Assembly (NCBI GenBank): GCA_023920165.1
Contig: CP089277.1
Location: 248,001-312,000 of the forward strand
Length of the DNA: 64,000 nt
Direction of reading: 5' to 3'
Origin: Curvularia clavata
Lineage: Eukaryota
A program made the translations under genes and the position numbers. Below, in pieces: positions 28,001 to 47,382 of the stretch (position 1 is the stretch's first letter; each line of letters begins with the position of its first letter). Under the pieces are notes generated by a model. The model was not told the origin of the DNA, made no database searches, and was given only the letters and a program-made list of their open reading frames with translations.

Positions 28001-31000
28001 GGCCGCTCCTCCTAATCCAATCAATGACTCAACGAATGAGTTCAACAATCGCTTCATCATTCACAACATTCACTTGAAATGGAGCAACTCGCTACGCAAC
28101 ATCATTCTTCGTTATATTCATCAGGTTAGCCAGCGTCGTGGTTTTGTCTACTACATGTCTCGAAAGGCTGTCAAATTCATTCTGGACGTTGTCGAAGAGC
28201 AAGAAAAGAAACGAGGGCCGTCACATAATTCGACTCATGAGACTCCTCTGACAGCCGATAGTGATGATGGGATGAACATTGATGAGGCTATTGAGCAGTT
28301 GCTGCACGATGGCAAGAAATTTGTCAATGCTGATGAGGAGGACGCCAAGAGCAACATTCCGTCTGGACCTGGGACAGGGCCTGATGGTGTGCAAGCAAAC
28401 GCCTCGAAAACAGACGAGGATGTTGCAGATGATTACGTATCCCAGAACTCGTATCTTGTCCGTCTTATCGCACCTCAAATACAGCTGCAAAGCGAAAAAG
28501 ACACCAAATCTGCTGTGCTCGTCACAGCGAAGGGCATTCAGCTCAAGGTGCTTTCAATCATGGACAAGAATCGGGTAATGGATGAGGTTTCAGGTCTAGT
28601 TCAGCGAAGATTCATCACGGCCATGGACAGTCTGCAGATCTTTGTCACAAACTCGAAGACCTTTAGCAGTGCGGACGACATTCACATGTACTCTGGAAGC
28701 AACTACGGGTCGCCTGCTGGCTCCGCATGGCCCCCTTGGGTGCCTTTTGAGGTCATGTTTGAATTCCACACAAATCCGTTTGGGTTCCAGCGAGTCGTCC
28801 AGCGTACATCAGCCAGCATGCGATATGACAAGTACAACGCTCTGCGTCTCAAGTACAACGATGATGTTTCGGCAGCTGACTCTGAGTCCTCCACCGATCA
28901 CACAGAAAGCAGGATTGACCACCTATGGGTAGACTTCCCACATGTACGAGCTATGTGCGATTCCAGGCAATACTACGCCATGTATGTCATCGTACTTGAT
29001 CTATTGCTGTACCATGAACCACTTGAGAAGACGCGCAACGAGCGACTTGAAAAGATCATGCTAGCATCAGATTTCACCGATCTTGCTGGGGCACCAAAAC
29101 TCGTCATGGGCCTCCAGGAGCGTATCCAACAACTCGAAGAGATCAAGACTGTATTCCAGATCAACGAGAAGTACTTGGACAAGCAAGGATGGGAAGATCG
29201 TATTGAAGTGGAGAAAGACCTGGCTGTGTACGAGGACGAGCTGTTTTTCGTCATGAAAGCTATCACTACTGCACAGCGCAAGCAAGATGATCGTTCACAG
29301 GCAAATGAGTCGACAGGTCTTCTGAGGATGTACGTCTCGGCATCGGACATTGTGTGGCATCTCCTGCGTGAGGGTGCGGAGTCTTTGGCGGAGTTCCAGC
29401 TCAAGAACGTGGTGTTTGATCGAACTGACAACAACGACGGATCCAATGCGAACTCAATGGAGATTGAACAAGTCCGCGGTCTGAACCTGCTGCCAAATGC
29501 ACTGTATCCGGAAATGATCTCACCTTTCCTCGAGAAAGACCAAACTCTTCCAGAAAACGCCAAATGTCTCAAATTGTACTTCGTCGCCCTGGAATCTATC
29601 GCAGGAATTCCTGTGGTGGAGCATTTTGAGGTCGAACTTTACCCTCTCAAAGTCCAACTGGAGTATCAAATAGGTAAGAAGCTGCTCCAGTACGTCTTCC
29701 CGACATACGGAGACAATAAAACGACTACGACGTCGCCGTTCTTGCTTAAACATACTTTGCCGTCGCAGGACCAAGGTGACGACGATGATCATCTTACTTC
29801 TAGCAAAGCCAGCAGCATGGGCGCATCGCTATCGACTGATGATGGCGCCGTGGAGGCTCTGAAGCAACGACTTACTCCAACACTGCAGCTCCCTGATCGA
29901 TCACAGAAGAATGATGCCAAGAAGAAAAGCCCGCCGAAGAGGCCAAGCGCACACTACTTCCGTTTCTTCCGCGACACCCCGTCTCGCAGTGGGACTGAAA
30001 TTCATCGATCACTTCATCCGAGCTCAGCTCTCAGTGTTCCCACGCTTGCCAGTAGTTCGTCTCTGCCATCCAGGCCAAGCTCTGTTCGATCGAGTACCAA
30101 CTCAAGCCTGACGTTGAACGATTCTGAACGCACTGGCAAACGTTTCGCACTCTATCGTACCGGTACTAGCATGACTGAGAGGCGTACGAACAAGAAAGAA
30201 GTAAGGAACGATGACCTCACGGAGATGATGAATCGCGCGAGTGAGTTTATGACCATCGCCTACTTCAAAGTGCCGTCCATGGTCCTTTGCCTCTCGTACA
30301 AGGGCAAGAGTTCACGCAATTTTGAAGACGTCCACGATCTCGTTTTCCGTATGCCCACTATCGAGTACCGCAACAAGACTTGGTCGAACCTAGACCTCGT
30401 TACACAACTCAAAAAAGACGTCCTCAGAGCACTCCTTTCGCATGCAGGTACCATTGTTGGCAACAAGATCTCGCACCACCGTCCTTCAGCCAAGGCGCAA
30501 TCGCGACTCCGGCAGATTGCAAACAGTAGCACATTGCTCAACACATCACCCGATTTGTCAGGCGCAGAGTCCAACTCCATGCGCGATCAGTCTCCGGGCG
30601 GGGGATCCGATGTCTCTGGGGAAAACCACACCGGCCGTCGATCGTTCGCTTCTGGTCGTCAAGGCAGCACGATCAGCGCCGTCTCAGAAGAAGGCTCGTC
30701 ATTCTACTCATCCAAGCCCCCATCGACATCCAATCAGGCGCGCTCCACACACGGCTCCATCATGGGTGGCCTCTCAAGCCATCATACTGCTGTCGACGTG
30801 GAAGACGGCAGAGCTTTTGCAGACGAACTATCCAGAGTAGATAATACGGAGCCCGTACATGCGAATCTCATTCACAGCCTAAGCAGACACATTGCGGGCG
30901 TGAGCGCACCTTTTGCAGGACACATGCGAGCACGAGCGAACAGCGGAGCGGCCAGTACCAAGGCGGCGAGCGTAGCAACTGCTCTGAGCAATTCCAAAGA

Positions 31001-31136
31001 CAAGGACAAAGAGGATGTGGGAATGGCACCTGATGACGAGGTGGGCGTCGCGGCTGGTCTTGGTATTGGAGGCGACGGACCGAAAACCAAAAAGGCAAAA
31101 GCGTTGGGTAAGAAGTTGCTGGGAAGGAGTGGCTAG
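22097..31136 (+). CDS. FMP27: Bridge-like lipid transfer protein BLTP2/Hobbit (Fmp27/Hob1 ortholog); 2 exons, ~2996 aa
   Basis: N-terminal TM anchor then RIATGVSIQRLG. Diagnostic GFWDK, FFSWW, WPPW and RNKTWSNLDL (Apt1-type C-terminus) motifs. Intron 26738-26786 joins the 1593-aa and 1454-aa ORFs. Confidence 0.95.
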
Positions 31137-31653
31137 ATTACCACGCCTAATATGTCGTCGGCGCATGAAGGACTTTGCCTCTGAGCACATACTCTTATTT
31201 CTTTATTTCACCACATGCCCCCCCACCACCCTTTTTTTTCTACACATAAACGTTTCAAATTCGGGTTTGGCGCAAGAGCGGCTGGAGGGAATTTTCTGAA
31301 AGAGAAAGACGTACTTAGATGGGGCGTGGTAGGTGTGGCGTACATGCAGTCTTTCGCTTTTTTTTTCCTTTATTATCTTTCTCCTCTGTCTCTATTCTCT
31401 TTGTATATAGTTTAATCTGAGCCTTTGGGCATTTGGGAGGACTAGATCACATGGATAAGCGTACGAGAGAGAGAATGTGTGGTTTCCTCTGTTCGATGGA
31501 AAAGTTCAAGTAACTTTATTTATAGAAAAGGAGGTTTATACATGAAAATTATAAAATCAATATTCGACAATTCCATCTACACGCTTCAATGGTTGAGAAT
31601 ATGGTATATCCTGTATTACTTGGATGCGGCTGGCTTCCCTATTACTACATACA

Positions 31654-33753
31654 CTAAGCCTTCTTCCCGTCGTGCTGATTCTCTTTCTCCTTCTTCTCCT
31701 TCTCCTTTTCCTTGTGCAATTCCGGGTTAAGCGGCTGTTTTGGGTCATAGCCTACTCTTTTCACAATGCCGAGGCCTTTTGTCCTGCCTTCGCGGAAGAG
31801 AATGCGATCACCTACGGTGAGATACTCTGGGCGCTGAACAAAGCGGAAAGCAACCTGGGCGCGGTCTCCAGTTCGAATGTACTGGCGATCGATATCGATG
31901 ATGGCGCAGGTTTGGGACACAGGACCCACGTGCAGCATAGCTTGGTACTTGGTCTTGATGGTGGTTGCGTGGGATAGGATCAAGACCTCGGCGACGAACT
32001 CGCGGTAGACCTTGGGATTCGGGATGATGCCGGTTGCTGGGTCTGGCTTGTCGGGTTTGTGTAGGACGACCATGCCTTTGCGTACGTCCTTTCGGCGGAC
32101 GTTTCGCAGCGCAAGACTGGCGGACTGACCGGCAGAACATCCAGGCACTTGTATTCGCTTGCGCTCGATAGATCGTACTTTAGTTGTTTGGAATTGGCCT
32201 AAGCTGTCGGGGCCAATCAAGACGGTGTCACCCGTGTGTATGACTCCTGACTTTACGACGCCTGACACGACGGTGCCGACGAAGGGCACTGAGAATGTGT
32301 CGTTAACATGAAACTCCAACGCCGCAGAGCTGTCGTAATTGCCGTGATGCGGGAGAGCGTTGAGGAACATGCGAACCAGGTCAAGGTTATGGCCAGTGAC
32401 GTTGGATACCTGGAAGATGGGACATATCCGGCTCGATACAAACTGCGTGGCAGTATTTATGCACTCCTCTCTATTTTTGATAAAGATTGGTATCTTGTGT
32501 GCGCCAGGCGACTTGAGAATCTTGGTCAGCTGCGTAATGGTCTGCTCGAGAATCTGAGGCGGGCAAATGTCGATTTTGGTAATGACTACCATGACCGGTA
32601 CTTTCATGGCGAGCGCGATACCCAAATGTTCCCTATGTGGATTAGTATAGGGAAAATAGCATAGAGAGCACAATTAAAACGTACTTGCTCATGCCAATCA
32701 GGCCATTATTTGCTGCAATCATCAGTAAACAGTAGTTGGGTTCGCTAGATAGCAGGCCGAACACGGTGGTGCGCAGGTACCGCTCGTGTCCCGCAAGATC
32801 AGAGAAGCTGATGACTTTCGCCTGTAGAAGTCAGAACTGATGTACAGACCGTGGCAGTTAGAGCTTACCGATCGCCGCCCAATCTCCTCCCATGTGAGTT
32901 TTCGACCCGGGACGTTGGACACTACTACCTCGCTCTTGCTATCGAAACCCATTATCTCCATACCAACGGAGCTAGTTCGCCCGCTTTCAATTTCGTGTTT
33001 GTGGCGGAATAGATTGACACGTGCTTTTCCACGGCCGTCGTCGAGGCCGCCCTTGACCAAGACACCTAGCATTGTGCTCTTGCCCGCGTCAACTGTATTC
33101 CGTCAGCTTTGTGCTTTTCCACTTATTCCAACACGACTCACCATTGCCCACGACTGCTATCCTCGTTTCGATTACATCGTCGACACTCTCCGGTCGTCTG
33201 CGCAATATCATCTTTCCGCTGCACCCTGTATCTTTTGCATCGCGGGGGCCGACCTCTATGTCACCACCAATATTTCTTGTCATGAGCATCTTGTAGTCGG
33301 CCTTGATCAGCTCGCACACGGCGTCTATTCTCTGCAAAGCAAACTCCCAAACGTCCTTGGTAAAGCCCATGGAGTCGCCGGTGTCTTCCAAACCAACATC
33401 AAACAAGACCTCGCCGTGCCCTTCAGCAAGGCGGTCCTTGATATGCTCGGCGAGAGCGGCGACATTCTCCTCTGCGGGGTCTGAAAGAAGTGTCTTGAGA
33501 CGAATATGTGATTTGTTGTCGTCGGAGAGGCCCAATTCGTCCAGAACGCTCAGCTCGTCGTGGTCTTCGAGGACGGCGGGGGATTGGCCTGGAGGTCGGC
33601 GCAACGCCTGTTGCTTCTCTACGTAGTCGGCGAATTCGCTCAAGGCCTAGGGTAGCAAGTCAGGAGAGGTATACAGGTCGCAGAGTGGCGACTTACAGAC
33701 TCGCCCTTGCGCCGCTCAGCTGGGCTCTGTTTGGGCTCGTGTCGTGATGCCAT
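31654..33753 (-). CDS. GTPBP1: GTP-binding protein 1 (GTPBP1/GP-1 family translational GTPase); 5 exons, ~633 aa
   Basis: Introns 33647-33696, 33093-33141, 32822-32868 and 32633-32684. Motifs [33 protein letters not shown] and C-terminal [10 protein letters not shown]. Confidence 0.93.
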
Positions 33754-34301
33754 GGTTTATGGGATGGAAGGGTGGAAGATGGGATGAAAGCAGTAGGTCA
33801 GCGCAAGGTCCGCCGTATTAACAAGACGATTGGTATTCGGGATATTCGAGCGGTATGTGAAAGTTCCATGAGTTGTCTTGCCGGGAGCATTGAAGGGTGG
33901 CGTGTGCTGGATGACGCTGAACAGTGGATGATGCTAGCTAAGGGAAATCCGGGGTCGGGCGGCCACTTAAGCTACTTCCCTATCGATAGACATGACGCTG
34001 ACACTCGACATGACACTGACTCACCCCTCCGACACAGCCGCCACTCGCAAGGCTACCACGCTCAGTTTCCTCATTTCACAGTCATCTGGAGTGGAGATGC
34101 GCCCCTAATTCGCGCATCCTCCTTGCGCATCCTACTCTGACCGGTGCCAAGAAGGGCGCAAACACGAACACGACACGACATTCACCGCTGGGAGCCAGCC
34201 GAGGCAGAAACACGACACTATTCCAGGAAATATGGAGAAGATTCATAAATTGTGTTGCGTCATGTGACTTATTCATACATCTAATCTTACACTTCGATTC
34301 C

Positions 34302-35855
34302 TCACGAAGCTGCGGCGGTGGTGGCGGCGACCCCACGTTCGCTGCAGTACTTGGCAACCTCCTTCTGCAATGTCTCTCGCTGGTTGTTGACAACCTCCAT
34401 AATGTCACTAACTCCATTGACCGTCTTGCAGTACTCAAATGTATCGGCCATTTGCATAAGGACCGCCGTGAGCTGGTTTGGCAGCCACTGTCACCAGTTA
34501 GCAGAGTGTTTAGACAGAAGCAAGGCTCAAAACTTACTGTTACAATCGGGCTTCCACCGGTCGCGGTAGGGTGCGCTGTGTGCTTGAGAATGTATTCGCG
34601 CGTGAAGCACCAGTGCCGCCAGCGGAAGTCACGAACTTGGTCAAGAGCTTGGAGGTAGAGAGCGGCTGAGATGGAATCGCCCTTTGCAAACTCGCGCACG
34701 CCAGCTTGTTCAGCTGAATCGCGCACCGCCTCAAGGAACTCGCGGTGGTTTCCAGGCCTGTACTGGCGGAAGTCTTTGAGAATGTCTGTGAGAGGTGTCT
34801 CGGGCATCTGCACTTGTAGCAGGTTGTCACACATAGGAATCATGCTGTCGTTGGCACCAGACTCGCCGCGGAATGACATTGGCTCTTCGCTCACACCCTC
34901 GTAGATGACGCCATTGGGGAACATAGACTGTGATGTGATGCCGAAGATGAATGTGCGGAAGTTTGTGTACCCTTGAGGCTTGCTACGATTCCACATAGCT
35001 GTCACCGTTAGGAGTTGATAGTCTGAGTAAAGCGGCTCACTTACTGTTCATGACTGCGTTGACTTTGCTCAATCCACTCACTAGTGTTCGCAGACCATCG
35101 TTGAAAGCCTCTCGATCACGCGCCATGCAGCTCTCAATCATGTCCGCTGCGCCCTTGACAAGGGCACCAGACTCCTTTACCATGGCAATGTGGACCAGCA
35201 CGAAGCCTGCCTCTGACGAAGTAGGATCTAGACCATGCTCAAAAGCACGAATCAGCCGAAGGTTGTCGTACTCGAGGCCACGAGAAGGGTCTTCAAGGCG
35301 GTAGTTGAAGAGAGCATAGGAGCCTGCGTATTCCATGAATGGCTTGAACCCGGCACTACGTGCACACTTGTGTCAGCCAGGGGCAAAGGATGATATAAGC
35401 AAGCAGAATACTCACATTTCAGCTACCTTAACAATAGGTAGTGCAATGCATCTTGGCAGTGATTGACGACCTAGGCCATACGCCTCACCCTTCACATGCC
35501 TTTCGTGGCAAGGTTCAAAGAGGTAAGCAGAAGCCAAGAAGGAGTAGTCTCGGTACAGTGCGTTCATGACGACAAGATCATGACTGTACTTCTCTACCTC
35601 AGGAGTGAGGTCAGGTAGCTCCTTGAGCAGGGTGTCGCCAAAGGTAAAGTTGGCAAGAAGACCTGGCTCCCCTGACAGTGTCTTGATGGGCATGCGCTGC
35701 AAGAGGGACTCAAGAGGGGCAAACTCCTTTGGAAGCTCAACAATGGGCTCTTGACGAGGGAGAAAGCCTCGTGTAGTAGACACCATGAAAGCAGGGAGAG
35801 AGTGGTCATCAGGACGAGTGTCCTTCAGGACAGGAAAGTCAAAGGTAGAAGACAT
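34302..35855 (-). CDS. Indoleamine 2,3-dioxygenase family heme protein, probably IDO-gamma/IdoC type; 4 exons, ~465 aa
   Basis: Motifs RGFLP, SEAGFVLVH, FRGESGANDS, FRQYRPGNH, FRWRHW and TGGSPIVTWLPNQ. Introns 35356-35415, 34999-35044 and 34488-34537. TGA at 34302. Confidence 0.92.
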
Positions 35856-36041
35856 GACTGAAGAGAGAAAGTAAGAATAAACACAAATGATGATTGGAAT
35901 TCAATCACAGAGGAATCTGGACTGGTTGCCAGTTGTTGGTGTTGGTGTGGAATAGAAACACCTCAAAAGGCGGGCTCAACGCACGCTTATATCTCGTGGC
36001 CGGAATCAAAACCGGCCACGGAAAGGTACCGGCCTCACCAA

Positions 36042-36398
36042 GATAAGATGTACGTAATGGCTGGATCACTTGTCTTTATCTGCAGAGTTTGACCCGGAGA
36101 CATCCTTTGATGCCCGGCTAAGATTCCCCACGTCCTCCAGCGTTCCCAGATCGAGTTGCGACGGTCGGCTCGTCGTCGCCAAGACTGGAGATGGTGGACA
36201 GTGAGGGTTGAGGCGGCGCAACGAGGGCGTCCAGTATAGATCTACCAGGCGATAAAAATTCCATTCTTCTTTGGAATCGATCTTTTGAGAGAAAATTACA
36301 TATTGAGTTGGGGGATGTGATTAATAGCGCAGTGTTGCATCTATTCACGCTGTACGATAAGACCACGAACAGCAGATGGATAATGGAGAACGCGATAA
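36042..36398. promoter_or_regulatory. Cluster of six GATAA elements upstream of the IDO gene (candidate GATA-factor sites)
   Basis: GATAA at 36042, 36251, 36356, 36379 and 36394, plus TTATC at 36076. Confidence 0.4.
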
Positions 36399-37401
36399 CT
36401 GCATCTCATCAGTGGATCGTTTCAACAACAATGCATATTTGGTTCTACGGATACTACACGTAGCTTTGGCTACCTTCCACATCCCAACTTGTCATTGTCA
36501 ATGGCAACGCAAAGACATGGTGACTTGTCTTTGTACCATGATTTCACCCTTCGGTCCGACTTTCAATATCCACACACCGCAAACACCCAACCTAGCAAAA
36601 TACAAATCAACCCTCTAATCAAGCAGAAATGACACGAGGCCCAAGTTTACTTTTTGCTGGTGCGTTGAAGAAAAGTCACCTGGCACCCTAGCTCAGCGCA
36701 AGAACAAAACATCGATGCACTTCCCATTCAGAGACCAACTATACGATAGGCGCCAGCGGCTCTCGGCTGTGGAGCCAGCCAAAATAGCGCCGAAGAGACC
36801 CCGCAAGGCGCGCCCAACTTCCGGCCTTTGGTACCATAAAATTCCGGCCTCGTATTTCTCTTGGTCACGACCAATGGGATTGGCGTTAGGCTAGTAAGCT
36901 TGACTGCGTTGGTCTGAACGGTGGAAAAGGTACTAGTGCATGGCTGCTTTGGGGATGCTTTCTTGCAAGTGGTGTTGTGGGGGATTATGGGGATTGTAGA
37001 TTGCTAGCAGATAATTCACGTATGTGCAAGTAAACTAGAGGCAGAAAGGCTATTTGTCCTGATATCCCCTGTAGAGTGTCGAGAAGAGAGTCGGATGGTG
37101 GTAATGACAGTCATGCCTCGATTGGGTAATCCACAACAGGTAATTGGCGAGAACAACACCTCCAAGCAATGCAGCGACAAGCAATTACACATCAAAACCT
37201 CACGTACGATTCATGACCACCACTCGTGGCATCCCACCTACCGATCATCTCTTCAACGTAAACTAGATTGCCGCTTGTAAGCGAACCCCGCGCCTTTGTT
37301 CCCACCGTCCCGTGATCACGAGACAACATCACCCGTGCATTCCATAGCTGTTGCCAACACATTCGGTCCAGCCAATCAGCAGCGCCGAATAAACCCAAGC
37401 T

Positions 37402-38493
37402 ATGACAACTACAAGCGATGCTCCATCGACTCTCTACCCCAAGATCACATCGCACATATCTGAAGTCGTCGACAGCCTGCTAGCTCTGAATCGCGACCCC
37501 GAAAGCCCAGAATCTGAAGTTTCCATCGCGCCCATTCCCATCATCGGGACCGTTAAGCTTCACGGCACCCATGGCGACATTCTCATCTATCATGACAATA
37601 CAATCGTGTTCCAATCTCGCAACACGGTGGGTCTTTCCGCCCTAAAAGATAACCAGGGCTTCGCAGCTGCCATGTCCGATAAGACCACCACTCTACTCCG
37701 ACTCCGCGACTCCTGTGTCTCCCGTTGGCGTGAATTACATCCGAACAGTCTGTTGTGTGAAACCTACCCCGTGATCCTCGCTGGCGAGTGGATCGGTACC
37801 AAGATCCAAAAAGATGTCGCTGTATCCCAGCTCTCACGGCGCTTCGTCATTGTGTCACTGAGCATCAACGCAGAGTGGCAAAAGGATCAGGACTACGCTG
37901 ACAATGAGGCGCCGGAGCACGACGTGTATAACATCTGTCAAGCAGGCGTCTTCCATGCTACGCTCTACCCGCACGATGTCGAACGCACAGCTGCTGACGT
38001 GGAGCAGCTGGCCGAGCAGGTCGCTGCAAAGTGTCCATTTGCACGGCTATTTGGAGTTGATAGCGCAGGAGAAGGAATTGTGTGGAAACTTTGTTCGGAG
38101 TCTGAGACGTACCATGCGTCTCCTGCACTGTGGTTCAAGACCAAAGGTGGAAAGTTTAAGCAGAGTTCCTACCAGGCGCCTAGGCGGCGAATAGAGAAGA
38201 ACATAGGTGATAGAGAAGATAAAGAAGCGAGGCGGAAAGAGGCGGAGAAAGCGGCCCAATCGTGGTGCGGGACACTGCGCTTGGAGCAGGGCTGGGATGT
38301 GCTGAGGGAAAAGGGGATTAAGAGGGATGCACAGGGGCTAGGAGCGTTCTTGACGTGGGTACAGCAGGATATCTTGATAGAAGAGAAGACTATTATACAG
38401 CATGTGGAGATGGATGAAGTAATGTTGAAGAAGGAGATTGCGAAGATTGCGAGACCGTGGTATAAAGCAAGGGTGAGGGATGGCATCGAGTAA
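37402..38493 (+). CDS. RNA ligase 2 (T4 Rnl2-like) ATP-dependent RNA ligase; intronless, 363 aa
   Basis: Nucleotidyltransferase motifs in order: I KLHGTH, Ia FQSRN, III LAGEWIG, IV GEGIVW, V FKTK. Rnl2-type C-domain (LRLEQG...QQDILIEE). Confidence 0.85.
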   Translation: MTTTSDAPSTLYPKITSHISEVVDSLLALNRDPESPESEVSIAPIPIIGTVKLHGTHGDILIYHDNTIVFQSRNTVGLSALKDNQGFAAAMSDKTTTLLRLRDSCVSRWRELHPNSLLCETYPVILAGEWIGTKIQKDVAVSQLSRRFVIVSLSINAEWQKDQDYADNEAPEHDVYNICQAGVFHATLYPHDVERTAADVEQLAEQVAAKCPFARLFGVDSAGEGIVWKLCSESETYHASPALWFKTKGGKFKQSSYQAPRRRIEKNIGDREDKEARRKEAEKAAQSWCGTLRLEQGWDVLREKGIKRDAQGLGAFLTWVQQDILIEEKTIIQHVEMDEVMLKKEIAKIARPWYKARVRDGIE

Positions 38494-38669
38494 AAGCAAG
38501 GAAAATCTTGGAACTATACGAATGCGTCTATAAGGATTAAAAATTACGATGTCAACGAAGAGCAGAAAAAGAGTCAGAAACTATGGAAACCCATTCCCCA
38601 CACACAACTACATCCATCCTCACTCACTCCTTCTCTCTATAACAACTCCATGCATCTTATACACACCCT

Positions 38670-40121
38670 TTAGATAAGCGCAGCAGCAAACCCGACAGCT
38701 CCAGCGACTACCACTCCAGCCGCAGGCATCACTGCAACCGCAGAACCCGTATATGTCGCCATGGGTCCGCTTCCAGACGCCGTCGCCGCAGCACCATCAG
38801 TAGCAGCACTCGTCGACATAGTCGTCGCGCTCGCGCTCGCACTCGGCGTAGGAACCGCTATCGGCGCCACTGTCTTCAGCAGCTCAGGCGTAGTCGAAAA
38901 GGTCATCAAGTCTCCGAAGAAAGCGAGCGATGCACTGGGAAAAGGAAGAGTAGATACGGGTGTGGCACTGGGGAAAGCGGTGCGTTGTGAGGCAGGGGCC
39001 TCAGGCTGTAGACTGTCGCGGGAGAAAGGGATGAGGGGGTTGAGGACGCTGAGAGGAGGGTTAAGTATGTCTTTTGACATGTTGGAAAGAGAGGAGGACA
39101 ACTTACCTATCAATCACATGCGCTACACCATTATACAAAATGGTATTGACAAACGTAATCTTCGCGCCGTTGACCCACACACTACCGTCTGGCAACACGG
39201 TAGAAACAAGATCAGCACCTGCCATACTCTTGACCGTGACGTTGCCAAGGCTAGGCGAGAAGATGACATTGTCGGGTATGATGTGGTGCTTGAGGACCGT
39301 CTGGAGGGTAGCCTTGTCAGCGGAGGCGAGCACAGATCCGATGTTTTCGAAGGCTTCGTTGGTGGGCACGAAGATAGTGAAGTCGGAGATGTTAAGGCCG
39401 GTTTGGTCGGGTCCATTGAGGCCAAAGTCGAAGTCGAGAGCTGCGGCTTGCAGTGCCCCGTTGAGAGCGGTGTAGCCGGCACGGTAGGTGAAGAGCTGCA
39501 GTGGAGCACCGAATGAGAGGACCGTGTCGACTTTGTGGATGGTGATGCCCTCGCCAAGCTTGATATCCTGGTTTTGGTGTTAGTGTTACAATTCTTCATT
39601 AAAGATATTAGACAGTAAACTCAAATAAGGGAAGAGCTTACAGCCTGAGTGACGGTAGAGATGGTCTGTTCACCAGAGAGCACGCAGACATCTTTTCCGT
39701 TCTTCACCAGTCCATTGTAGGCACCGCCAGTAAAGTCTGAAAAGGGTTGGATGGCATTGACATAGGAGCTGTTCAGCAGAGTCTGGGCAAACGTGGGGAT
39801 CTCGGTGATGACTTCGGCGGGATACACGCCCTTGAAGACATGGTTGGCGAGAAGGGCTCCAATAGCTGCAGTATCATTTTTGAATTCAATGGCCTGGCCT
39901 TCAGGGATATCGCGGGGGACAGCAGCAAAAGCTTCGTTGGTGGGCGCGAAGATGGTGATGTTGGAAGAGGCAGATAGGGTTTCTGCGAGACCATTCACCA
40001 GACCCACAAGCTCAAGGAGAGTGCTAAGGTCGGGCTGGGAAGAGAGTAGAGCACCAAGGTCGCCTTGAGCAAGGGTGCTACCAGCCATGAGGCCGAAAGT
40101 CCAGATATGAGATAGACGCAT
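38670..40121 (-). CDS. Fasciclin (two FAS1 domains) secreted, probably GPI-anchored cell-surface protein; 3 exons, ~439 aa
   Basis: Signal peptide, ITIFAPTNEAF / TIFVPTNEAF, IHKVD / GVAHVID, Ser/Thr stalk and hydrophobic C-terminal tail. Introns 39568-39641 and 39049-39106. Confidence 0.92.
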
Positions 40122-41593
40122 GATTAGAATGATACGGGGACAATGGTAGTGGAAGGAAATGGAAAGAAGAGAGAACTGATTGTTGTTTATGAGAGGATAG
40201 AAGGCCTGTTGTCTGATGCTGTTGATGTTTCCTGTCCCCATCGACGATGAGCCTCTCCTTTATACACAGCTCTCATTCACCAACTACTCTAGAAAACTCG
40301 CAAGTGAAATCCTACTACCACACATTAACTCAGGCATTCTTTCCTGCTGACACAATGACATCTTCGACTCTGTAGCCAAGAAGCAGTTGTTTACACAGAA
40401 ACGTCCATCATCAAGGCGCAGCAGCCTGATCAGAGCAGGGTTTATGGCGGCTGTTGAAGCTCCCGAGGTCTAGTTGCATCTTTTTTGAGGCTTCCCACTC
40501 TACCACCACGCAGGGTGAGGTAGGACGCACATGGACACAGCATTCCTATTGTACAACGGAGCGAGTAATTGGACAAAACGTATTTGCCAAGTCATTTCGC
40601 TGGCGTGCAGTATGCACCGGCGAGAATCGCCTGTTCCCCTGCGCTGGAACACGGCGAAAAGTTGCCAGGGGCGTTGTTTATGCAGAGCCTAAAATGATCT
40701 ACATAATGCCTGTACGCTGTAAGGTGCTGTGGCGTCTTGTCTTGTGGATCTTTGGGGCAGTGTATATTGATTGCGATGCTAAGGACTGCGGCGATGGCGA
40801 TGAGGTTGAAGTAACAAGGCGATCAGTTTTTCTAACAGTATAGAAATCAAAGTCTGTAAAGCAGACTACATGTCGATATAGTGGTAGAGCTAAGAGCGAG
40901 GAGTGGCTGTTCCTCTATCTCGGAGCAGTACGTTGGAACAACAAAATCCAAGTTTCTACCTAATCCATCTCTTACAGTGTTCATATGTCCAAAAGAATCA
41001 TATGTGCTTCGAAAACGTCGAGCGTAGGCATTGTTGCGGGCTGCTGCTGAGAGTGACGTACAGGCATAGAAAGCGGGAAGAACCTGTTTGGTTCCCTGTT
41101 CCAGTTCCGTTCAGGTGGCGTTTTTAGTAGCTTTTACAGCTGCAGCAGGTTATACCTAACTGGATGAAAGGTAATCACGTGATGATGTGTAACAGCTTCC
41201 ATTTGTCAACCTCAGTTGCACCGTGCAGATGGAGTGAGCGCTAAACTGGGTTTAGCTTCTCAGCGGTAGCGCTAACGAATTACAGCTGCACGTTCTCCGT
41301 AGTTGCGCTCCAGTTATGCCAACTGAACTGCACTGAATCGTGACAAACACAACATCTGGCAGTTGAAGAGCACTCAATTACTTCTTTGACTTGATTGAAA
41401 TGAGCTGGATTGAACTGGCAACGAAACAGGCCTTGAGAAGTTCAATGCGTCCGTGTTTGAGCCGCGTCCTGATCGGTATCCATACTTCGTACTACCGAGC
41501 CGCACCAATTAGATCATGGCCCACCCGGTCAAAATTTACCGACATGCCCAACAAGTAATATGCACAAAAAGCGATATAAGGTGCCGTAGTCGA

Positions 41594-43222
41594 TTAGGAG
41601 GTGGCAATGCTTGCCTCATATCTACGCAGGATAGCTTTGTAGTCATTGTACCATTCCTCCAGCCATCCAGTTGCGTCAAACATGCGGGTGGTGTAGCAGC
41701 TCAGTGTTGGATCCAGAACCTTCATGCACGCCACCAGATTCCGCAGTTTCAGCCCATACTCTTCGACTCGAAAGCAGTCCTTTGGCAAACACTGACCATA
41801 GGTGTTCTCTGGGCCGTTAGTCGCCACCAGAGCCGTAACAAGAACAAAAAGAGCATGCAGAATGGCTGGCGCAAAGCAGAACGAAGGCAGACCGACAACC
41901 ACGGCAGGATCCATCTCCACAGCGGCCTCTATGGCACCATGGCAGTTCTCCACAAGCTTTTGCAGCGCCTCCTTGAGTGGTGAGATGATCATGGCTGGTT
42001 TCGGAAAGTCCTTAACTGGAATGCGCCCAGGGATGTATGGTGATGCGAATAATGACTTATTGGTGGGAGTGTGTAGTACAAGCTCATACAGGTGTACCAG
42101 GGATACGTGCCACCATACTCTGAGTGTCTTGGACAGAGCAAGGGCCGGCGGAATCTGAGCTGCCCATGCGTCGAGCTTCAGCTTGAGCGACTCAATCACA
42201 GCATAGACGTTATAGTCGTTGCCGTCCACAAAGGTAGCTATCTGACAGAGATACAGGTTGTTGGAAATGTCCTGATCCAACCGGACAACACGGGCAATTT
42301 GACAAAACAGCAGATCCGAAGCGTCGCCATTGCTCTCCAGATACCCAACGCACTCATCCAGGTAAGTATCCCATGGCACGGGACTAGGTCGACGGGTACT
42401 CATGGATGAAGTGGACGTTGCAATGTAACAAGCTAGCCAAGTGCGACGCGCCTCGAGTGACCCCGTGTTCTGGAGTCTGCAAAAGTAGGCTGGGGGAGTG
42501 GGCTGTAGCGATACTCCCCCAATCCCAAGATCAATGGCCATGTCGGAGGCTATTTGGAGAATCTGATAACAGCTTCCTTGCTGTCCGTTACGCGTACCCT
42601 TGGTATAGAAAGAAGCCAGAAGCAAAGCTTGCACAAGTTCGAGGGATCGCTGGCCTCGCCCAATGACATCGTCGCCCAGTATGCGCATCGTCTCTCGAAC
42701 AAGCTCATCATGCAAGTCTGCATCAACACCTTGAGCCTGTTGGGTAATGGTGAAGACCAGTGCAGCTAACAGCAGAATGGGGGATTTTACTCGATGATAT
42801 TCGAGATTCGGAGTCAGACGAACGGCCGGCCAGGCCGTTTCCACCTGAAGCACATAGTGATGGAGCAGTTGTTGCTGCTTGAAGAGCGGAATACGTGCGT
42901 CCAAAAACGACAAGATGGCGTCGGGATGGCTGTCTGCTAGACTGGCGGGCGGCCGACTTAGCGTCGACTGACTATCGCCTGGAGAGTCGCTCGGGGGAGT
43001 GTAAACATTTTGATTGGATTGGCTTTGGAGTGCGTTCTGAAGCTCCTGGACCTGGGCCTCGAGCTCACTAATGCGATCGCGTTGTAAGCGTGGTGCAGCC
43101 GGTACACAGTCGAGATTGTTGCGATGACAGCGCTCACAAACGCCCGGCTGAGGGGAGGTGGTTATATCGCATTTAATCTTGAGACGATGGCATTCTTCGC
43201 AAGCGCGATAGCGTTTCCTCAT
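41594..43222 (-). CDS. Zn(II)2Cys6 fungal transcription factor, 542 aa
   Basis: Binuclear cluster ACEECHRLKIKC...CERCHRNNLDC, coiled coil RISELEAQVQELQ and middle homology region (SLELVQALLL, AIDLG, RRTWLACY). Confidence 0.93.
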   Translation of the reverse strand: MRKRYRACEECHRLKIKCDITTSPQPGVCERCHRNNLDCVPAAPRLQRDRISELEAQVQELQNALQSQSNQNVYTPPSDSPGDSQSTLSRPPASLADSHPDAILSFLDARIPLFKQQQLLHHYVLQVETAWPAVRLTPNLEYHRVKSPILLLAALVFTITQQAQGVDADLHDELVRETMRILGDDVIGRGQRSLELVQALLLASFYTKGTRNGQQGSCYQILQIASDMAIDLGIGGVSLQPTPPAYFCRLQNTGSLEARRTWLACYIATSTSSMSTRRPSPVPWDTYLDECVGYLESNGDASDLLFCQIARVVRLDQDISNNLYLCQIATFVDGNDYNVYAVIESLKLKLDAWAAQIPPALALSKTLRVWWHVSLVHLYELVLHTPTNKSLFASPYIPGRIPVKDFPKPAMIISPLKEALQKLVENCHGAIEAAVEMDPAVVVGLPSFCFAPAILHALFVLVTALVATNGPENTYGQCLPKDCFRVEEYGLKLRNLVACMKVLDPTLSCYTTRMFDATGWLEEWYNDYKAILRRYEASIATS

Positions 43223-44139
43223 GGTGGTGCTAAAGGCCCGAACCAGGACGGCGTTTTGGCTTCACTTTAGAGCGGTTCAAAATCAATGACAACTTGATTT
43301 GAGCGGGAGCGCTAGGCAGACACGCTTCAACGGCTGTGGCGGCGCGTGTGGCTGTGTCGGCCCAATAAGTCACGTGGCTGCTTACTCTTCGACTTGGCAA
43401 CTCTGCTTTCATCCCACATCCCATAACACAAAAACCTGATCGATCCAGACGACTCTTTATCCACATCCGACCCTAGTCCGCGCGTACATACATTGATACC
43501 CAAACACTATCGTGCTGCCGTAAACTGGTCTCATCGGCGGCCATACAAAATCCATTGCTGACCCCGAACCCCATCATGCTTCCCTGCGTGTTCCCTCACG
43601 CGCATATTGCATGGCAAGGCGATCCAAAATGCGAGCTCTGAATGACGCGATACCTGATAGAGCGACGGAATGCGAGCCACAACCTCTATGACGGCCCGAG
43701 AACTCAACGTGGGGTGATCTCCACAAAACCCTCAATCACAACACTGTATAAAACCTGTTCAGATGGCAAGCCAGCTTCTATTTGCTCGCGGACCCTTTGC
43801 AACGCCTGTACGAAGTACTGGTGGAGAGTTGATACAAAGGCAAGGTAAGCAGCACCCCCCACCCCAACTCTCTTACCAAGCTCCACCCCCGCGATCCCCA
43901 GTCGGAGCTTGTTTCCAAACAAGCAACGCGGCAAATCAGCCCCGCCGCTCACCCGGCGAACCACTTCACGAGCTCGCCGTGGTCCCAGTCCACCCCAACA
44001 CCCTACGGGGCATGGGGTCGTCTTGTCAAGTCTAGGCTGACGCAAAGCAGTCTACCATGTCATACGACTCTAACCGCCTTGTCTTATTCCACTTGTACCT
44101 CTTTGTCTTCTGAACGCGACATCCGGCACACCCGCCGCA

Positions 44140-45157
44140 ATGAAGCTCAAGGCCTCGCTCCGTGTCCACTTACCAGGGATACGCTGGAGTCCTCACGACA
44201 TCGACTCGGAAGAGCCGTCGTCCTCGTCCAAACCAAAGACACGGCTTCCTTTTCTCCTAAAGTCATCTGCACCCGATCCAGCAGTACGTGTGCGCCCGCG
44301 CAAATCCACGATCAGCCTTACGTCGGAACCCAATGTCGAGATCGATGCGCGTACGCAGGCACAGGGCCAATCGCTGTTTTTTGCCCGCCTGCCAATTGAG
44401 CTGCGGCGTATGGTGTACGAGTATATGATAGGTGAGGAGGTGATACACCTGACGTTGAGTCAGAAGAAGAGGTTCCGGCATTCCATCTGCTCCAGCGAAG
44501 AGGAAGGCCACCCAAGAAGAGGCAAGCAATGTGCATGCAGAGTTCTGGTTGGAGGCAAAAAGGGTGCAAGACTAGATAACGGTATCGTAGCCATGGCTCG
44601 GACTTGTCGGCGCATGTATGTGTTTCTCATTCATCTATCGCTTGAAGTAAAAACACAAGGACTTACCGTAATCTAGGTACTCGGAAGCAATCCCGCATCT
44701 CTACCGCGCGCACACTTTCTCCCTTCTACACATCACACATCTGCTCTATCTCCCCTTGTCCGTTCCGCAAATGCGCCTAAACGCCATCCGCACGCTTCAC
44801 CTCCGCTGGGCCATCCGCGCACTCCCTTACCTACGACGTGGCCCTTCAAGTCGCATTGCATACCGCGAAGACACGGAAAACTGGGAGAAAGGATGGTCAA
44901 TTATAGCTGGAATGCAGGGTCTACGTGAACTCTTCGTTGTACTGATCGATCCAAGCCCTCAGCAATTGTGGGAGAGGAACTGGCTGCAGCTCGAGGATAT
45001 GCTGCTAGAGAGTGTAAGGGGCGTCACGAGACCAAGGGATGCTGTAGTCGTGATGCCGTATCAGAGTTGCGGTATCGATTGGGATATGGGGAGCGGGTGC
45101 GTGAAGTTGAAGAGACCGGAAGACGGGCATGTTTCTGCTGATGAGGAAGAGGAATGA
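44140..45157 (+). CDS. DUF7730-like fungal protein (F-box-like N-terminal segment); 2 exons, ~318 aa
   Basis: QGQSLFFARLPIELRRMVYEY...RTCRRM|YSEAIPHLYRAHTF...IRTLHLRW. Intron 44616-44676. Confidence 0.8.
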
Positions 45158-45356
45158 AGAAACAAATAGCAGCTTTGCAGGCGAAGCTGCGCTACGGAAC
45201 TAGAGGAATATTCTCTGGCCTACGATATGCATGCAGCCAATGTTGGAAGGAGCAGTAGTCTGGCATAGCAAACTCAACTGATCATCAATATTATCATTCA
45301 ACTACATTATCTCTATCATCACATCATTTTACTATTTGGTTTTTCTCTATGCTCGC

Positions 45357-46607
45357 TCACAATCCAAAGCAATTAGCATAGTACGTAACCGTCGCCGGCC
45401 AGTCCGAAAACATGCCCAAGATACCCACGTCCTGAGCAAGCACATGCAGCACCTCGTACATGTCTCCATCCTTCTTCGTTACATTGGCAACATATTGGTA
45501 GTAGTAGCCCCCACCGCCAATCTGCAGCCATCCGGAGCGCTCAAACGACCACGCAACCATATCGAGGCCATGTTCCTGGCAAGCAAGAGCATACTCGGAT
45601 GGTACAATCTTGCCTGCGTCGTCGAGCTTGGTGAGGGCAAACATGGCGGGCGCCATGATCTTGACGCCGCGAGCAGCCAGGTCGGGGATGCTGGCTGTGG
45701 CGTTTGCGTAGCCTGCAGGCGTGTCGACGCGCTCGTCGAGGTAGACGGCTTGCACGCCGAACTCGGGCTCGTTGTCAATCCAGTAGAAGATGTCGTCGGG
45801 CAGGAAAGACTGGAGCCACACGCGGCTGGGGTCGATCTTGTACTCGCGGAACTTGTCGACGAGATCCTGTGCGTACTGCTCCTGGGTGTAGCCGTCAAAG
45901 GGCATCTTGACCTCGGGCGTCTTGAGTTCGGGCGTGAACTTGAGACCCCAGCTGTCGACTAGAGGAATATACTCGTCGACGGTCATGAGCTTGGGGCAGT
46001 TCTGGGCGTACAGGTCGGTACGGAAGTAGGGTGTTCCATCCATGTACTGCTCAACGGTTGTAGCGTTGGGATTGAAGCTGTCCATCTTTCCACAGAGGGA
46101 GCTGAACTCCTCGAGTGTAATGTCCGAGGTGCAGCATTTAGCCGATGCAGCAGTGCCATTGGCAGCTGGAGAAAAGGGCTTGGTGCACTTCGCAGCGAGT
46201 GGGGTGCTGAGGATGTTGGTCGTTGTGTGCAAATCGCATTGGGCGTGGCGGCAGACAAGTTGCTTGTCCTTGGTGAAGGCGACGTCGCATTCGATAACAC
46301 CAGCACCCATACGATGCGCAGCTTTGTAGCCCTGGAGCGTGTGCTCGGGGAACTGCAGAGGAGCTCCACGATGGGCAAAGACAAAGTCCGAGGTCTCAAA
46401 CTCTTGCTCTGAGCAGCTTTCCAGCTTCTCCTTCAATGGCCCATCGTTCATGTCATCGACCAGGTAGTACGGCCGAGGTCCAACCTGGACATTGAAGTTT
46501 TTTCCATGTCCATGGCCGTGGTGTTGTCCAGTGCGAGATACAACGGCAGGCACAGCAGCAGCGGACGCGAGTCCGAGAAGGACGGAGGTAGTAACGAAAG
46601 AGCGCAT
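45357..46607 (-). CDS. Secreted glycerophosphodiester phosphodiesterase (GDPD), 416 aa
   Basis: Signal peptide and motifs [47 protein letters not shown]. Confidence 0.93.
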
Positions 46608-47382
46608 CGTGAGCGATGGTCAACCCAGAAAGATATGGGAACCTGGGGAAAGAATCAACGGTTCCTGCAGGACAGGCATGCGAACGGCTGTACTGCTTCT
46701 TATCTACATTGGCAAAGACAGGCCTATACAATGCCTCGGACGGCTCTAAGACGCCAATGAGTTATGTGGCTGGAGCTGCTCAACCTGAGCTCCATAGCTA
46801 CTGCACGTGGGTGAGCTTCCCCCGGCTCGAAGCTCTTGGTGCTGCTGGGTCATCGGCGGAGAAGAGCACGATTGAGGGAAACTATGCAAGAGTGGCTAGC
46901 TTGCCAAGCTGCCAAGGACATGCAGGCTTTCACGTTTCTCAATGGCGCGATAAGATACGTGAACAGACATTGGCGAAGCGGTAGGAACAGCAATTCTGAC
47001 AGGTAGACGCACGCCTCTTGTGCGTCATCTTTCCCGCCTTGGCCGCGTCCTGCTTCTTTGGCCTTGGGCTCCGGTGTAGTGCCAATCCTTCGGTCTTTCA
47101 ACGGGCCGTCAGCAGTTTGTGGCTGGGCCAGGGATGCCAGCCTCAACTTCGCATTGAGGAAAAACGGACGAACCATATGATGGTGATTAATTTCGTGAGA
47201 TGAACCTGTCTCTTCAGAGATGCCTTTTACGTTGCCAAAGGTAGTTTTGAGCTTAATACACGTAAGATCGAAGGCTCCGGATCCCCGCACGATCGACTTG
47301 CTCGAGATCACCAGACTTTCTTTTCATATGATGAACGGTGTGTGGGTAGTAGCATCTGAGGCTTCATCTCGAGACCAATGGC

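Follow-up and report, generated by a model that had tools for sequence, protein, structure and literature searches.

Among the ATP-dependent RNA ligases described to date, T4 Rnl2 (gp24.1, RnlB; PDB 1S68, 2HVQ and 2HVR) is a phage enzyme in which a nucleotidyltransferase (NTase) domain is followed by a helical C-terminal domain. Phages of the Vequintavirinae (Salmonella phage PVP-SE1, gp239; Escherichia phage Av-05) encode an RNA ligase 2/RnlB of about 345 aa with bacterial relatives, for example in the Nannocystaceae, and we know of no biochemically characterised member of this set. In fungi the familiar RNA ligase is Trl1, in which a Rnl1-like ligase is combined with kinase and CPD domains. 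This enzyme is presented in PMC6379707 as tripartite, with healing domains. The Rnl5 ligases (Deinococcus DraRnl, Naegleria NgrRnl) include nick-sealing ATP-dependent RNA ligases of microbial eukaryotes; PMC4408790 reports homologues in 13 fungal genera and gives as the hallmark of the group an N-terminal domain ahead of the NTase domain, without a C-terminal domain. Our literature searches, including papers on PF09414 (none of them fungal), returned no described fungal Rnl2-type ligase, in agreement with the initial annotation, which had suggested that the gene reported here might belong to an uncharacterised RNA repair system.

This gene lies in a window of 64,000 nucleotides, the whole stretch of Curvularia clavata contig CP089277.1 that was analysed (Table). 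It is a single, uninterrupted and intact ORF, whose ATG stands 3 codons past an in-frame stop. PF09414 (RNA_ligase) is the sole significant Pfam family in the encoded protein, which contains a ligase module only, and fungal homologues of about 350-360 aa align with it end to end. The earlier proposal of a stand-alone Rnl2-type ligase is supported: the protein has an NTase domain and a helical C-domain with the catalytic residues intact, and it is distinct from Trl1.

Table. Features of the ligase locus in C. clavata (positions are those of the window, residues those of the encoded protein)
Feature	Position	Strand	Basis or remark
RNA-contig cover of the ligase and the 3' portion of the convergent gene downstream	37251..39567	.	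contig X1
Rnl2-type ATP-dependent RNA ligase CDS, intronless, complete (363 aa + stop)	37402..38493	+	ORF, PF09414, PHROG 548
NTase (adenylyltransferase) domain, residues ~7-254	37420..38163	+	VIA-align of model; PF09414 at residues 46-246
All-helical C-terminal domain, residues ~265-360	38194..38481	+	hhalign/hmmsearch alignments, PHROG 548, separate C-domain model
Motif I KLHGTH, residues 52-57	37555..37572	+	Lys52 = predicted AMP-accepting Lys (T4 Rnl2 K35); His57 for T4 N40
Motif Ia QSRN, residues 71-74	37612..37623	+	Arg73 opposite T4 Rnl2 R55
Motif III GEWIG, residues 128-132	37783..37797	+	Glu129 opposite T4 E99; invariant
Degenerate motif IIIa FVIVSL, residues 148-153	37843..37860	+	Val151-Ser152 at T4 Phe119-Asp120
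Motif IV EGIVW, residues 224-228	38071..38085	+	Glu224 opposite T4 E204; invariant
Motif V FKTKG	38134..38148	+	Lys246/Lys248 opposite T4 K225/K227; invariant

In profile searches PF09414 matched just past its threshold (29.4 bits, cutoff 27), whereas TIGR02307, the curated Rnl2 equivalog model of NCBIfam, reached 17.2 bits against a cutoff of 197.15; of the two HMM searches that the initial annotation had proposed, the Pfam one thus passed its cutoff and the TIGRFAM one did not. PHROG 548 aligned with residues 34-358 (E 2.8e-34, the profile being matched to position 339 of 341) and also takes both T4 Rnl2 (463 bits) and the phage PVP-SE1 RnlB (260 bits), so that the low TIGR02307 score, seen beside the PF09414 and PHROG 548 matches, points to a divergent subfamily rather than to an equivalog of T4 Rnl2. 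A profile of the family (A1) recovered T4 Rnl2 (2hvq) from the PDB with E 6.2e-11, and hhalign, run with the family alignment on T4 Rnl2, gave 97.8% and an E of 7.4e-13; 254 columns were aligned, query 47-331 with T4 30-300. A single-protein phmmer search of the PDB retrieved no ligase, its matches being chance ones to Rieske proteins at E above 1; Pfam T4_Rnl2_C (PF18043) had no match in the protein up to an E of 1, and T4 Rnl2 was missing from the PDB matches (E limit 10) of a profile built from the C-domain only (A3).

The predicted full-length model (pLDDT 94.6, pTM 0.91) has T4 Rnl2 (2hvr and 2hvq, E 1e-8) as its top Foldseek matches. In VIA-align, residues 7-254 matched REL1 (1xdn, Z 15.6, rmsd 3.3, 207 aligned), T4 Rnl2 (1s68, Z 15.2; 2hvr, Z 15.1) and NgrRnl (Z ~15), and the structural overlay suggested at the outset thus returned T4 Rnl2, REL1 and NgrRnl as the best folds. 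Modelled separately (pLDDT 93.5), the C-domain placed T4 Rnl2 residues 244-328 at rank 2 of 48,161 chains with a Z of 7.5, a value of the order that helical domains can attain by chance (rmsd 2.9, 80 aligned); Foldseek with the C-domain alone ranked T4 Rnl2 first at a non-significant E of 1.8 and returned nothing at E up to 0.001.

Two other identities and a mitochondrial role were considered. Trl1 is likewise an ATP-dependent fungal RNA ligase of the same superfamily, but a Trl1/Rnl1-type tRNA ligase was ruled out by the length of 363 aa, the presence of PF09414 only and the lower VIA-align score of T4 Rnl1 (Z 12.3, under the Rnl2, REL1 and Rnl5 rows); the Trl1 ligase domains are far lower fold matches to the query (Foldseek ranks 14 and 43). 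An Rnl5 identity was excluded by the missing N-terminal domain, the NTase fold starting at about residue 7, and by the presence of a helical C-domain of about 100 aa. As for mitochondrial targeting of the kind seen in the kinetoplastid RELs, the acidic N-terminus and the start of the fold at about residue 7 make a presequence unlikely.

All the motifs first read from the DNA, i.e. KLHGTH, QSRN, GEWIG, FVIVSL, EGIVW, FKTKGGKF (residues 245-252), LRLEQ (residues 292-296) and GAFLTWVQQDILIEE (residues 314-328), are present in the ORF, and the parallels drawn to KIHGTN, GEFAG, EGYV, KCKNSKF and NRV..VQDILEE of T4 Rnl2 were confirmed by profile-guided alignment, in which Arg293, Asp323 and Glu327 of the C-domain stand opposite T4 R266, D292 and E296. 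The phage enzyme and its counterpart in a eukaryotic host hence have in common motifs I, Ia, III, IV and V and the Arg/Asp/Glu positions of the C-domain, at a structural-alignment identity of about 14-19%, and at the level of sequence this motif match is far beyond chance. T4 Rnl2 residues beyond K35, R55, K225 and K227 are essential too. The roles of R55 and of K225 and K227 are described in PMC12440814. The fungal ligase departs from T4 Rnl2 at E34 (Val), N40 (His) and F119-D120 (Val-Ser).

These positions were followed through an alignment of 255 sequences, made up of 201 from the ascomycete clade, 24 from the chytrid clade and 30 from prokaryotes and phages (28 prokaryote loci and 2 phage genes). 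K52, H54, E129, E224, K246, K248, D323 and E327 are invariant in 255/255, position 293 is Arg in 254/255, and position 73 is either Arg or Lys. The Asn-to-His change in motif I and the degenerate motif IIIa, both singled out in the initial annotation, proved to be real and lineage-wide. His57 is common to both fungal clades (224/225 sequences) and missing from 79/80 IMG/VR loci, the prokaryote/phage sequences having Asn (30/30). At the aromatic position of motif IIIa, F or Y is found in 23/24 chytrid-clade and 30/30 prokaryote/phage sequences, and I, V, L or C in 196/201 from the ascomycete clade; as read from this alignment, the ascomycetes have lost the aromatic residue. The motif I His thus marks the ascomycete and chytrid lineages, and an aliphatic motif IIIa the ascomycetes. 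The Vequintavirinae RnlB-type proteins and their bacterial relatives share the motif I context GTVK(L/I)HGT with the fungal ligase and match it at 30-32% identity across 88-97% of the protein; unlike it they retain the motif I Asn and the motif IIIa Phe (30/30), and most of them likewise lack the motif IIIa Asp. With neither the aromatic residue nor the Asp in motif IIIa, and with His in place of N40, the activity or cofactor use of the C. clavata enzyme could differ from that of T4 Rnl2.

A homologue search returned 226 matches; the best 120 of 226, the query itself aside, are 49-84% identical to it, and the organism-named rows among these 120 are all Dothideomycetes, almost all of them Pleosporales. 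A profile of the ascomycete clade obtained 977 matches (33-42% identity to the profile's lead sequence among the matches listed), with named relatives in the Leotiomycetes, Lecanoromycetes, Dothideomycetes and Xylobotryomycetes, and a sister clade holds named Chytridiomycota and one member of the Blastocladiomycota. No Sordariomycete, Eurotiomycete, yeast or basidiomycete occurs among the organism-named rows, and the distribution is therefore either patchy or only partly seen. A careful maximum-likelihood tree of 50 rows recovered the Ascomycota (100/100) and the chytrid clade (92/83), and a split supported at 95/84 sets both fungal clades apart from all others, with every sampled prokaryote and phage, the Vequintavirinae-type proteins included, on the far side. 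Within the Ascomycota the Pleosporales and Dothideomycetes are recovered and the internal branching is largely taxonomic, the positions of the Lecanoromycetes and of Elasticomyces being unsettled. The occurrence in several Pezizomycotina classes and in the chytrid/Blastocladiomycota sister clade argues for an old resident fungal gene with mostly vertical descent, a reading that rests on few named taxa.

The initial annotation had instead envisaged horizontal acquisition. A recent transfer from a phage or large DNA virus would make this a foreign intronless gene newly placed in a fungal chromosome. Such an event would fit the abundance of the family in phages (149 matching phage records, with the match spanning 80% or more of the protein in 143; 401/413 IMG/VR pattern matches encoding relatives), the lack of an intron in the ligase gene between two neighbours with introns, and the nesting of the fungal group among prokaryote and phage rows in trees rooted on T4 Rnl2. 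Against this, identity peaks at 24-32% for phages, prokaryotes and IMG/VR, as opposed to the 49-84% among the best 120 of 226 homologues; the gene is spread over at least 4 named Pezizomycotina classes; the fungal sequences form a group of their own with a monophyletic Ascomycota; and the local GC (0.51-0.52) is that of the remainder of the window, where the ligase has ordinary genes of a fungus as neighbours (IDO, fasciclin, Zn2Cys6 factor, Hobbit and GDPD) with no mobile-element genes seen nearby. Distribution and tree already contradict a recent transfer, the absence of introns is not evidence of transfer here, and we regard such an origin as extremely improbable. For the deeper history of the gene we give roughly even chances to a single ancient transfer from a phage or bacterium into an early fungal ancestor, the alternative being descent from the eukaryotic ancestor. 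The family is much richer and more varied in prokaryotes and phages than in fungi, the derived position of the fungal clades under the T4 Rnl2 root makes an ancient transfer possible, and an intermediate His-type sequence (P0206) is present on a 127-kb IMG/VR contig of 70-73% GC. On the other hand, with 6.5 changes per column the branch that carries the T4 Rnl2 root is so long that the root is unreliable, and the sampled eukaryotes are the fungi plus the rotifer Adineta, the sole named animal homologue, which groups with bacteria in the maximum-likelihood tree.

RNA-derived contigs from 3 runs of 3 studies on related strains cover the ligase gene (Table), with further covering contigs at 37290-39108 (X2) and 37469-38800 (X15), so that the region of the ligase ORF is transcribed; these contigs are unstranded, and some of the cover could come from antisense read-through out of the convergent gene downstream. 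The ends of two contigs, at 37251 and 37290, point to a 5' UTR of some 110-150 nt. There is no splice joint within the ORF in any of them, whereas in the upstream IDO gene they skip 34488-34537, 34999-35044 and 35356-35415 (CT..AC, i.e. GT..AG on the minus strand) and in the convergent fasciclin gene downstream 39567-39640, confirming the earlier remark that an intronless ligase gene stands between intron-bearing neighbours. The interval 36040-37160 is almost without cover in the same runs. In contig X15, 2 nt are deleted at 37771. Contamination or misassembly was ruled out by the intron-bearing fungal neighbours, the 4.4-Mb length of the contig and the RNA contigs of related strains.

Taken together, we consider it probable that the protein is a functional ligase of the Rnl2 family in the broad sense, with catalysis deduced from homology, and that it is the product of an old fungal gene of mostly vertical descent in which any transfer was ancient. 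Most likely the enzyme is active and seals nicks in an ATP-dependent manner; by homology, Lys52 would attack ATP to form ligase-AMP, the AMP would be handed to a 5'-phosphate, and the (ribo) 3'-OH end would then attack, thereby sealing the nick in duplex RNA or in an RNA:DNA hybrid, presumably in the cytosol or nucleus. No end-healing kinase or phosphatase was seen next to the gene, and the likely substrates are thus breaks that already have 3'-OH and 5'-phosphate ends. The same absence of an RNA end-healing partner would also suit an enzyme whose real task is DNA rather than RNA repair, namely the sealing of nicks with a ribonucleotide-ended 3'-OH strand, as at RNA patches or unremoved primers, and published work on Rnl5 and Rnl2 enzymes includes proposals of such a role; but no DNA-repair gene neighbourhood was seen around the ligase in the window or in the 15/28 prokaryote loci with flanks scanned, and we hold this to be unlikely. 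The Pfam scan of those loci (70 proteins) revealed no recurring neighbour either. At one prokaryote locus (L006) genes for an AAA_33 kinase-like protein and an Rv2179c-like exoribonuclease lie upstream, and several loci look prophage-like (T4 gp59-like, RusA, integrase).

The substitutions in motifs I and IIIa, the missing aromatic residue in nearly all ascomycete-clade sequences and the TIGR02307 score far under cutoff could alternatively be taken as marks of a ligase-fold protein that no longer ligates, such as an RNA-binding or AMPylating factor. This is very improbable in our estimate: the nucleophilic Lys, the Glu residues of motifs III and IV, the Lys pair of motif V and the C-domain Arg/Asp are kept across the 255 sequences, including all 201 of the ascomycete clade, which is the pattern expected of an active enzyme, and the motif IIIa Asp is missing in 27/30 prokaryote/phage members as well, implying that it is not required in this subfamily. 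Returning to an active ligase, it is a speculative and rather doubtful further step to suppose that filamentous ascomycetes and chytrids maintain a dedicated second RNA ligase lineage, diverged from phage Rnl2 in cofactor or substrate handling and serving a pathway peculiar to fungi and not known from yeast models, such as the resealing of duplex-RNA cuts with 5'-phosphate and 3'-OH ends in RNA silencing, in the control of dsRNA mycoviruses or in RNA warfare between organisms. The roles offered in the initial annotation, in countering ribotoxins or in acting on mycoviral or small RNAs, are likewise speculative.

Fungal RNA repair and ligation have been studied almost solely via Trl1. Many filamentous ascomycetes, among them plant-associated and lichen-forming lineages, carry a second ATP-dependent ligase, one of phage Rnl2 type, which is transcribed here and of which chytrids have a sister form; its absence from the named yeast rows seen may explain why it has escaped study. 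The gene is no example of recent virus-to-fungus transfer. For enzymology, the fungal ligases supply naturally occurring variants of motifs I and IIIa, and the C. clavata protein offers an easily expressed candidate for asking which RNA breaks with 3'-OH and 5'-phosphate ends, or which RNA-tipped DNA breaks, fungi reseal.

The predicted ligase is encoded by one open frame of 363 codons on the forward strand (37402-38493), which starts at the first ATG with an in-frame stop three codons before, and whose translation contains every motif quoted in the initial annotation, within residues 52-328. The Pfam RNA_ligase profile PF09414 recognizes residues 46-246 barely over its gathering score (29.4 bits versus 27), the curated Rnl2 equivalog TIGR02307 aligns with residues 49-351 at 17.2 bits, far short of its 197-bit cutoff, and a PDB search with the query as a single sequence matched no ligase. 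PHROG 548 ('RNA ligase') matches query residues 34-358 across profile positions 26-339 of 341 (E 2.8e-34), and also takes T4 Rnl2 (463 bits) and RnlB of Salmonella phage PVP-SE1 (260 bits). A profile built from a family alignment of 71 sequences retrieved T4 Rnl2 from the PDB (2hvq, E 6.2e-11) before NgrRnl (0.02) and REL1 (0.029), and its hhalign comparison with T4 Rnl2 (97.8% probability, E 7.4e-13) extended over 254 columns covering both the NTase and the C-terminal domain. All four of PF09414, PHROG 548, the family profile and hhalign thus point to the T4 Rnl2 family, as had been proposed in calling the product a stand-alone Rnl2-type ligase; we assign it to a divergent fungal Rnl2 subfamily whose motifs I and IIIa carry changes specific to the lineage.

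Features of the ligase region (nucleotides of the window, or residues of the ligase where so marked)
Feature	Position	Strand
Hobbit/FMP27	26742-31136	+
EF-Tu-domain GTPase	about 31654-33646	-
IDO	34082-35900	-
fasciclin	38670-40259	-
Zn2Cys6 factor	41594-43261	-
DUF7730	44672-45157	+
GDPD	45357-46619	-
Contig cover, run X1	37251-39567	unstranded
Contig cover, run X2	37290-39108	unstranded
Contig cover, run X15	37469-38800	unstranded
KLHGTH	residues 52-57	+
QSRN	residues 71-74	+
GEWIG	residues 128-132	+
FVIVSL	residues 148-153	+
EGIVW	residues 224-228	+
FKTKGGKF	residues 245-252	+
LRLEQ	residues 292-296	+
GAFLTWVQQDILIEE	residues 314-328	+

In the alignment, T4 Rnl2 K35, H37, R55, E99, E204, K225, K227, R266, D292 and E296 correspond to query K52, H54, R73, E129, E224, K246, K248, R293, D323 and E327, and substitutions are seen at E34 (V51), N40 (H57) and F119-D120 (V151-S152). 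Beyond K35, R55, K225 and K227, the T4 residues of this map are ones that we take to be important; functional roles of those four are stated in PMC12440814. The full-length AlphaFold model computed with the family alignment (pLDDT 94.6, pTM 0.91) has full-length T4 Rnl2 (2hvr, E 1.4e-8; 2hvq, 1.5e-7) and REL1 as its best Foldseek matches in the PDB, with low TM scores because the two domains are placed differently relative to each other. VIA-align, run over Foldseek's list, fitted the model to REL1 (Z 15.6, rmsd 3.3, 207 aligned), T4 Rnl2 (Z 15.1-15.2) and NgrRnl (Z about 15), all over model residues 7-254, with DNA ligases and Rnl1 lower (Z about 11-12). Folded separately from an alignment of 29 sequences, the C-domain forms five helices (pLDDT 93.5); T4 Rnl2 is its first-ranking Foldseek match, yet with E 1.8, and a C-domain-only profile had no match in the PDB. 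An unbiased VIA search of 48,161 chains placed T4 Rnl2 residues 244-328 in second position (Z 7.5, rmsd 2.9, 80 aligned), tied with a phiKZ capsid protein (Z 7.8), which taken alone is grey-zone evidence. Adding to this the unbroken profile alignments and the conservation of Arg, Asp and Glu, we accept the domain as an Rnl2 C-domain. The layout differs from that of Rnl5, which according to PMC4408790 has an extra N-terminal domain and lacks the C-domain, and from that of Trl1, to which kinase and CPD domains belong; both identities were rejected.

A word-indexed search gave 226 matches, the best 120 of which (the query itself, 100%, set aside) are 49-84% identical, about 345-440 residues long and labelled 'RNA ligase domain-containing protein' or hypothetical; those with organism names are all Dothideomycetes and nearly all Pleosporales, including Alternaria, Pyrenophora, Parastagonospora and Plenodomus. 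An exhaustive search of 50%-identity representatives recovered 2135, 1305 and 99 clusters at E<=1e-3, <=1e-10 and <=1e-30. A profile of the ascomycete clade minus Pleosporales found 977 proteins, named among them Leotiomycetes (Cudoniella, Phialocephala, Hyaloscypha, Oculimacula, Cadophora, Ciborinia and others), Lecanoromycetes (Stictis, Icmadophila, Physcia), Dothideomycetes (Tothia, Elasticomyces, Zopfia) and Xylobotryomycetes (Cirrosporium). A search begun with P0169, a member of the neighbouring clade, named Chytridiomycota (Nowakowskiella, Geranomyces, Powellomyces, Thoreauomyces), Blastocladiomycota (Paraphysoderma) and, more distantly, the rotifer Adineta. Among the matches listed, homologues thus occur in four named Pezizomycotina classes and in Chytridiomycota and Blastocladiomycota; none of the names in the best 120 per search (three lists) belongs to the Sordariomycetes, Eurotiomycetes, yeasts, basidiomycetes or mucoromycetes. 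One Atlas cluster carries an automatic Perigord truffle name, a lead only. Four homologues of 615-701 residues (P0132, P0135, P0138 and P0146, one from the Leotiomycete Ciborinia camelliae) show two matching stretches, with the ligase NTase region at about 6-255, and could represent gene fusions or gene models that were joined together. A mostly cyanobacterial by-structure Atlas cluster (about 420 residues) joins PF09414 to a tRNA_bind domain (PF01588).

The initial annotation regarded the gene as horizontally acquired; a recent transfer from phage to fungus is contradicted by the comparisons. Matching phage records number 149, all below 60% identity and 29-32% in the 25 listed; pattern searching gave 29 matches in GTDB genomes, of which 28 encode relatives (24-32%; Nannocystaceae, Bacteroidota, CPR bacteria, archaea and others), and 413 in IMG/VR, of which 401 do (<=32%). 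FastTree (153 rows) and a quick IQ-TREE (68 rows) separated an ascomycete clade (99) from a clade with chytrid sequences. A careful IQ-TREE (LG+C20+F+G4 PMSF, 50 rows, T4 Rnl2 and 17 unnamed rows of the 68 left out; UFBoot/SH-aLRT supports) recovered Ascomycota and Pleosporales (each 100/100), Tothia with Pleosporales (88/95), four Leotiomycetes (89/60), a chytrid and Blastocladiomycota clade (92/83), the split of Ascomycota plus the chytrid clade from all 26 remaining rows (95/84), and a group of all 16 named prokaryote rows with two phages and the rotifer (94/97); the positions of seven unnamed rows are intermediate between the fungal group and the prokaryote group. The motif I Asn-to-His change and the degenerate motif IIIa noted at the outset are real. 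Motif I is KLHGTH in 224 of the 225 sequences of the fungal clades (119, 82 and 23 of 24) and KLHGTN in 30/30 prokaryote or phage and 79/80 IMG/VR loci, retrieved with patterns accepting either residue; His also occurs in five intermediate unnamed rows, and as a sequence character it agrees with the careful tree. In 196 of the 201 ascomycete-clade sequences the aromatic residue of motif IIIa has given way to I, V, L or C; it is kept in chytrids (F/Y, 23/24) and prokaryotes and phages (F, 30/30). The gene has therefore long resided in fungal genomes. Its inheritance was mainly vertical within Pezizomycotina and probably reaches back beyond the divergence from chytrids, with losses on the way. 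That it came in the end from a phage or a bacterium, through ancient transfer, is plausible because fungi are nested when trees are rooted on T4 Rnl2; this root, however, sits on a very long branch, and we therefore consider such an origin evenly balanced.

The sole His-type ligase among the 80 IMG/VR loci (9980-10966 of a 126,972-bp contig, 70-73% GC) is an intermediate row of the tree (P0206); none of 11 other ORFs tested on this odd 'viral' contig had a PHROG match. At three prokaryote MAG loci the homologue is close to a gene of phage type, namely a T4 gp59-like loader (L010), a RusA gene (L007) and a phage integrase (L015), so several 'prokaryote' copies are probably prophage or viral DNA. 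In an uncultured Cellvibrionaceae MAG (L006, 433-3978), AAA_33 P-loop kinase-like and Rv2179c-like 3'-5' exoribonuclease genes precede the homologue on the same strand, an arrangement that may be a heal-and-seal cluster.

The neighbours of the Curvularia gene are ordinary fungal genes, with no kinase, phosphatase, other RNA-repair partner or mobile-element gene among them (26742-46619). GC near it is 0.51-0.52, similar to the window elsewhere (0.44-0.58), and the query's own database record places it on a 4.4-Mb contig. Nine sequencing runs (X1-X8 of two studies, X15 of a third) contain most of the stretch, and four were mapped onto 33800-40500. Contigs of X1, X2 and X15 skip 34488-34537, 34999-35044 and 35356-35415 (to 35418 in X15), segments bounded by CT..AC, which on the minus strand read as GT..AG introns of the IDO gene; X1 contigs additionally skip 39567-39640 inside the fasciclin gene, and the intergenic 36040-37160 has almost no cover. 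The contigs are therefore RNA-derived, and since none from these three runs has a splice joint within the ligase ORF, the region is transcribed and unspliced, in keeping with its description as intronless between intron-containing neighbours. These contigs are unstranded and extend into the convergent downstream gene, and their depth gives no basis for ranking genes by expression. In the region 38494-38700, only about 175 nt separate the stop codons of the ligase and fasciclin genes, and the 3' UTRs probably overlap, because single contigs cross both genes (37251-39567). The X15 contig, from a different organism and about 99% identical, has 2 nt deleted at 37771 (codon 124, just before motif III), which would shift the frame; either a mistake in assembly or a defective allele of that strain may be the cause.

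By homology the enzyme is predicted to work in the three classic steps of a ligase, by way of Lys52-AMP and then an adenylylated 5'-phosphate, and its C-domain would support action on nicked duplexes. Rnl2 enzymes, as described in PMC4408790, seal 3'-OH/5'-PO4 nicks in RNA duplexes or RNA:DNA hybrids and require RNA on the 3'-OH side only. Every catalytic position is invariant in 255 aligned sequences, which argues for an active enzyme. As no healing enzyme is adjacent, the likeliest substrates would be breaks already bearing 3'-OH and 5'-phosphate ends, which may lie either in RNA or in RNA-tipped DNA. A lead from other genes comes from bdelloid rotifers, in which, according to a preprint (10.1101/2021.09.04.458992), horizontally acquired PF09414 ligases are induced by fungal attack and ribotoxin repair is speculated upon. 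Our literature search found no published description or test of a fungal Rnl2-type ligase. The database label 'RNA-ligase-domain' was already attached to these fungal proteins; the gene is that of an expressed, uncharacterised fungal enzyme rather than a case of surprising recent transfer from virus to fungus.
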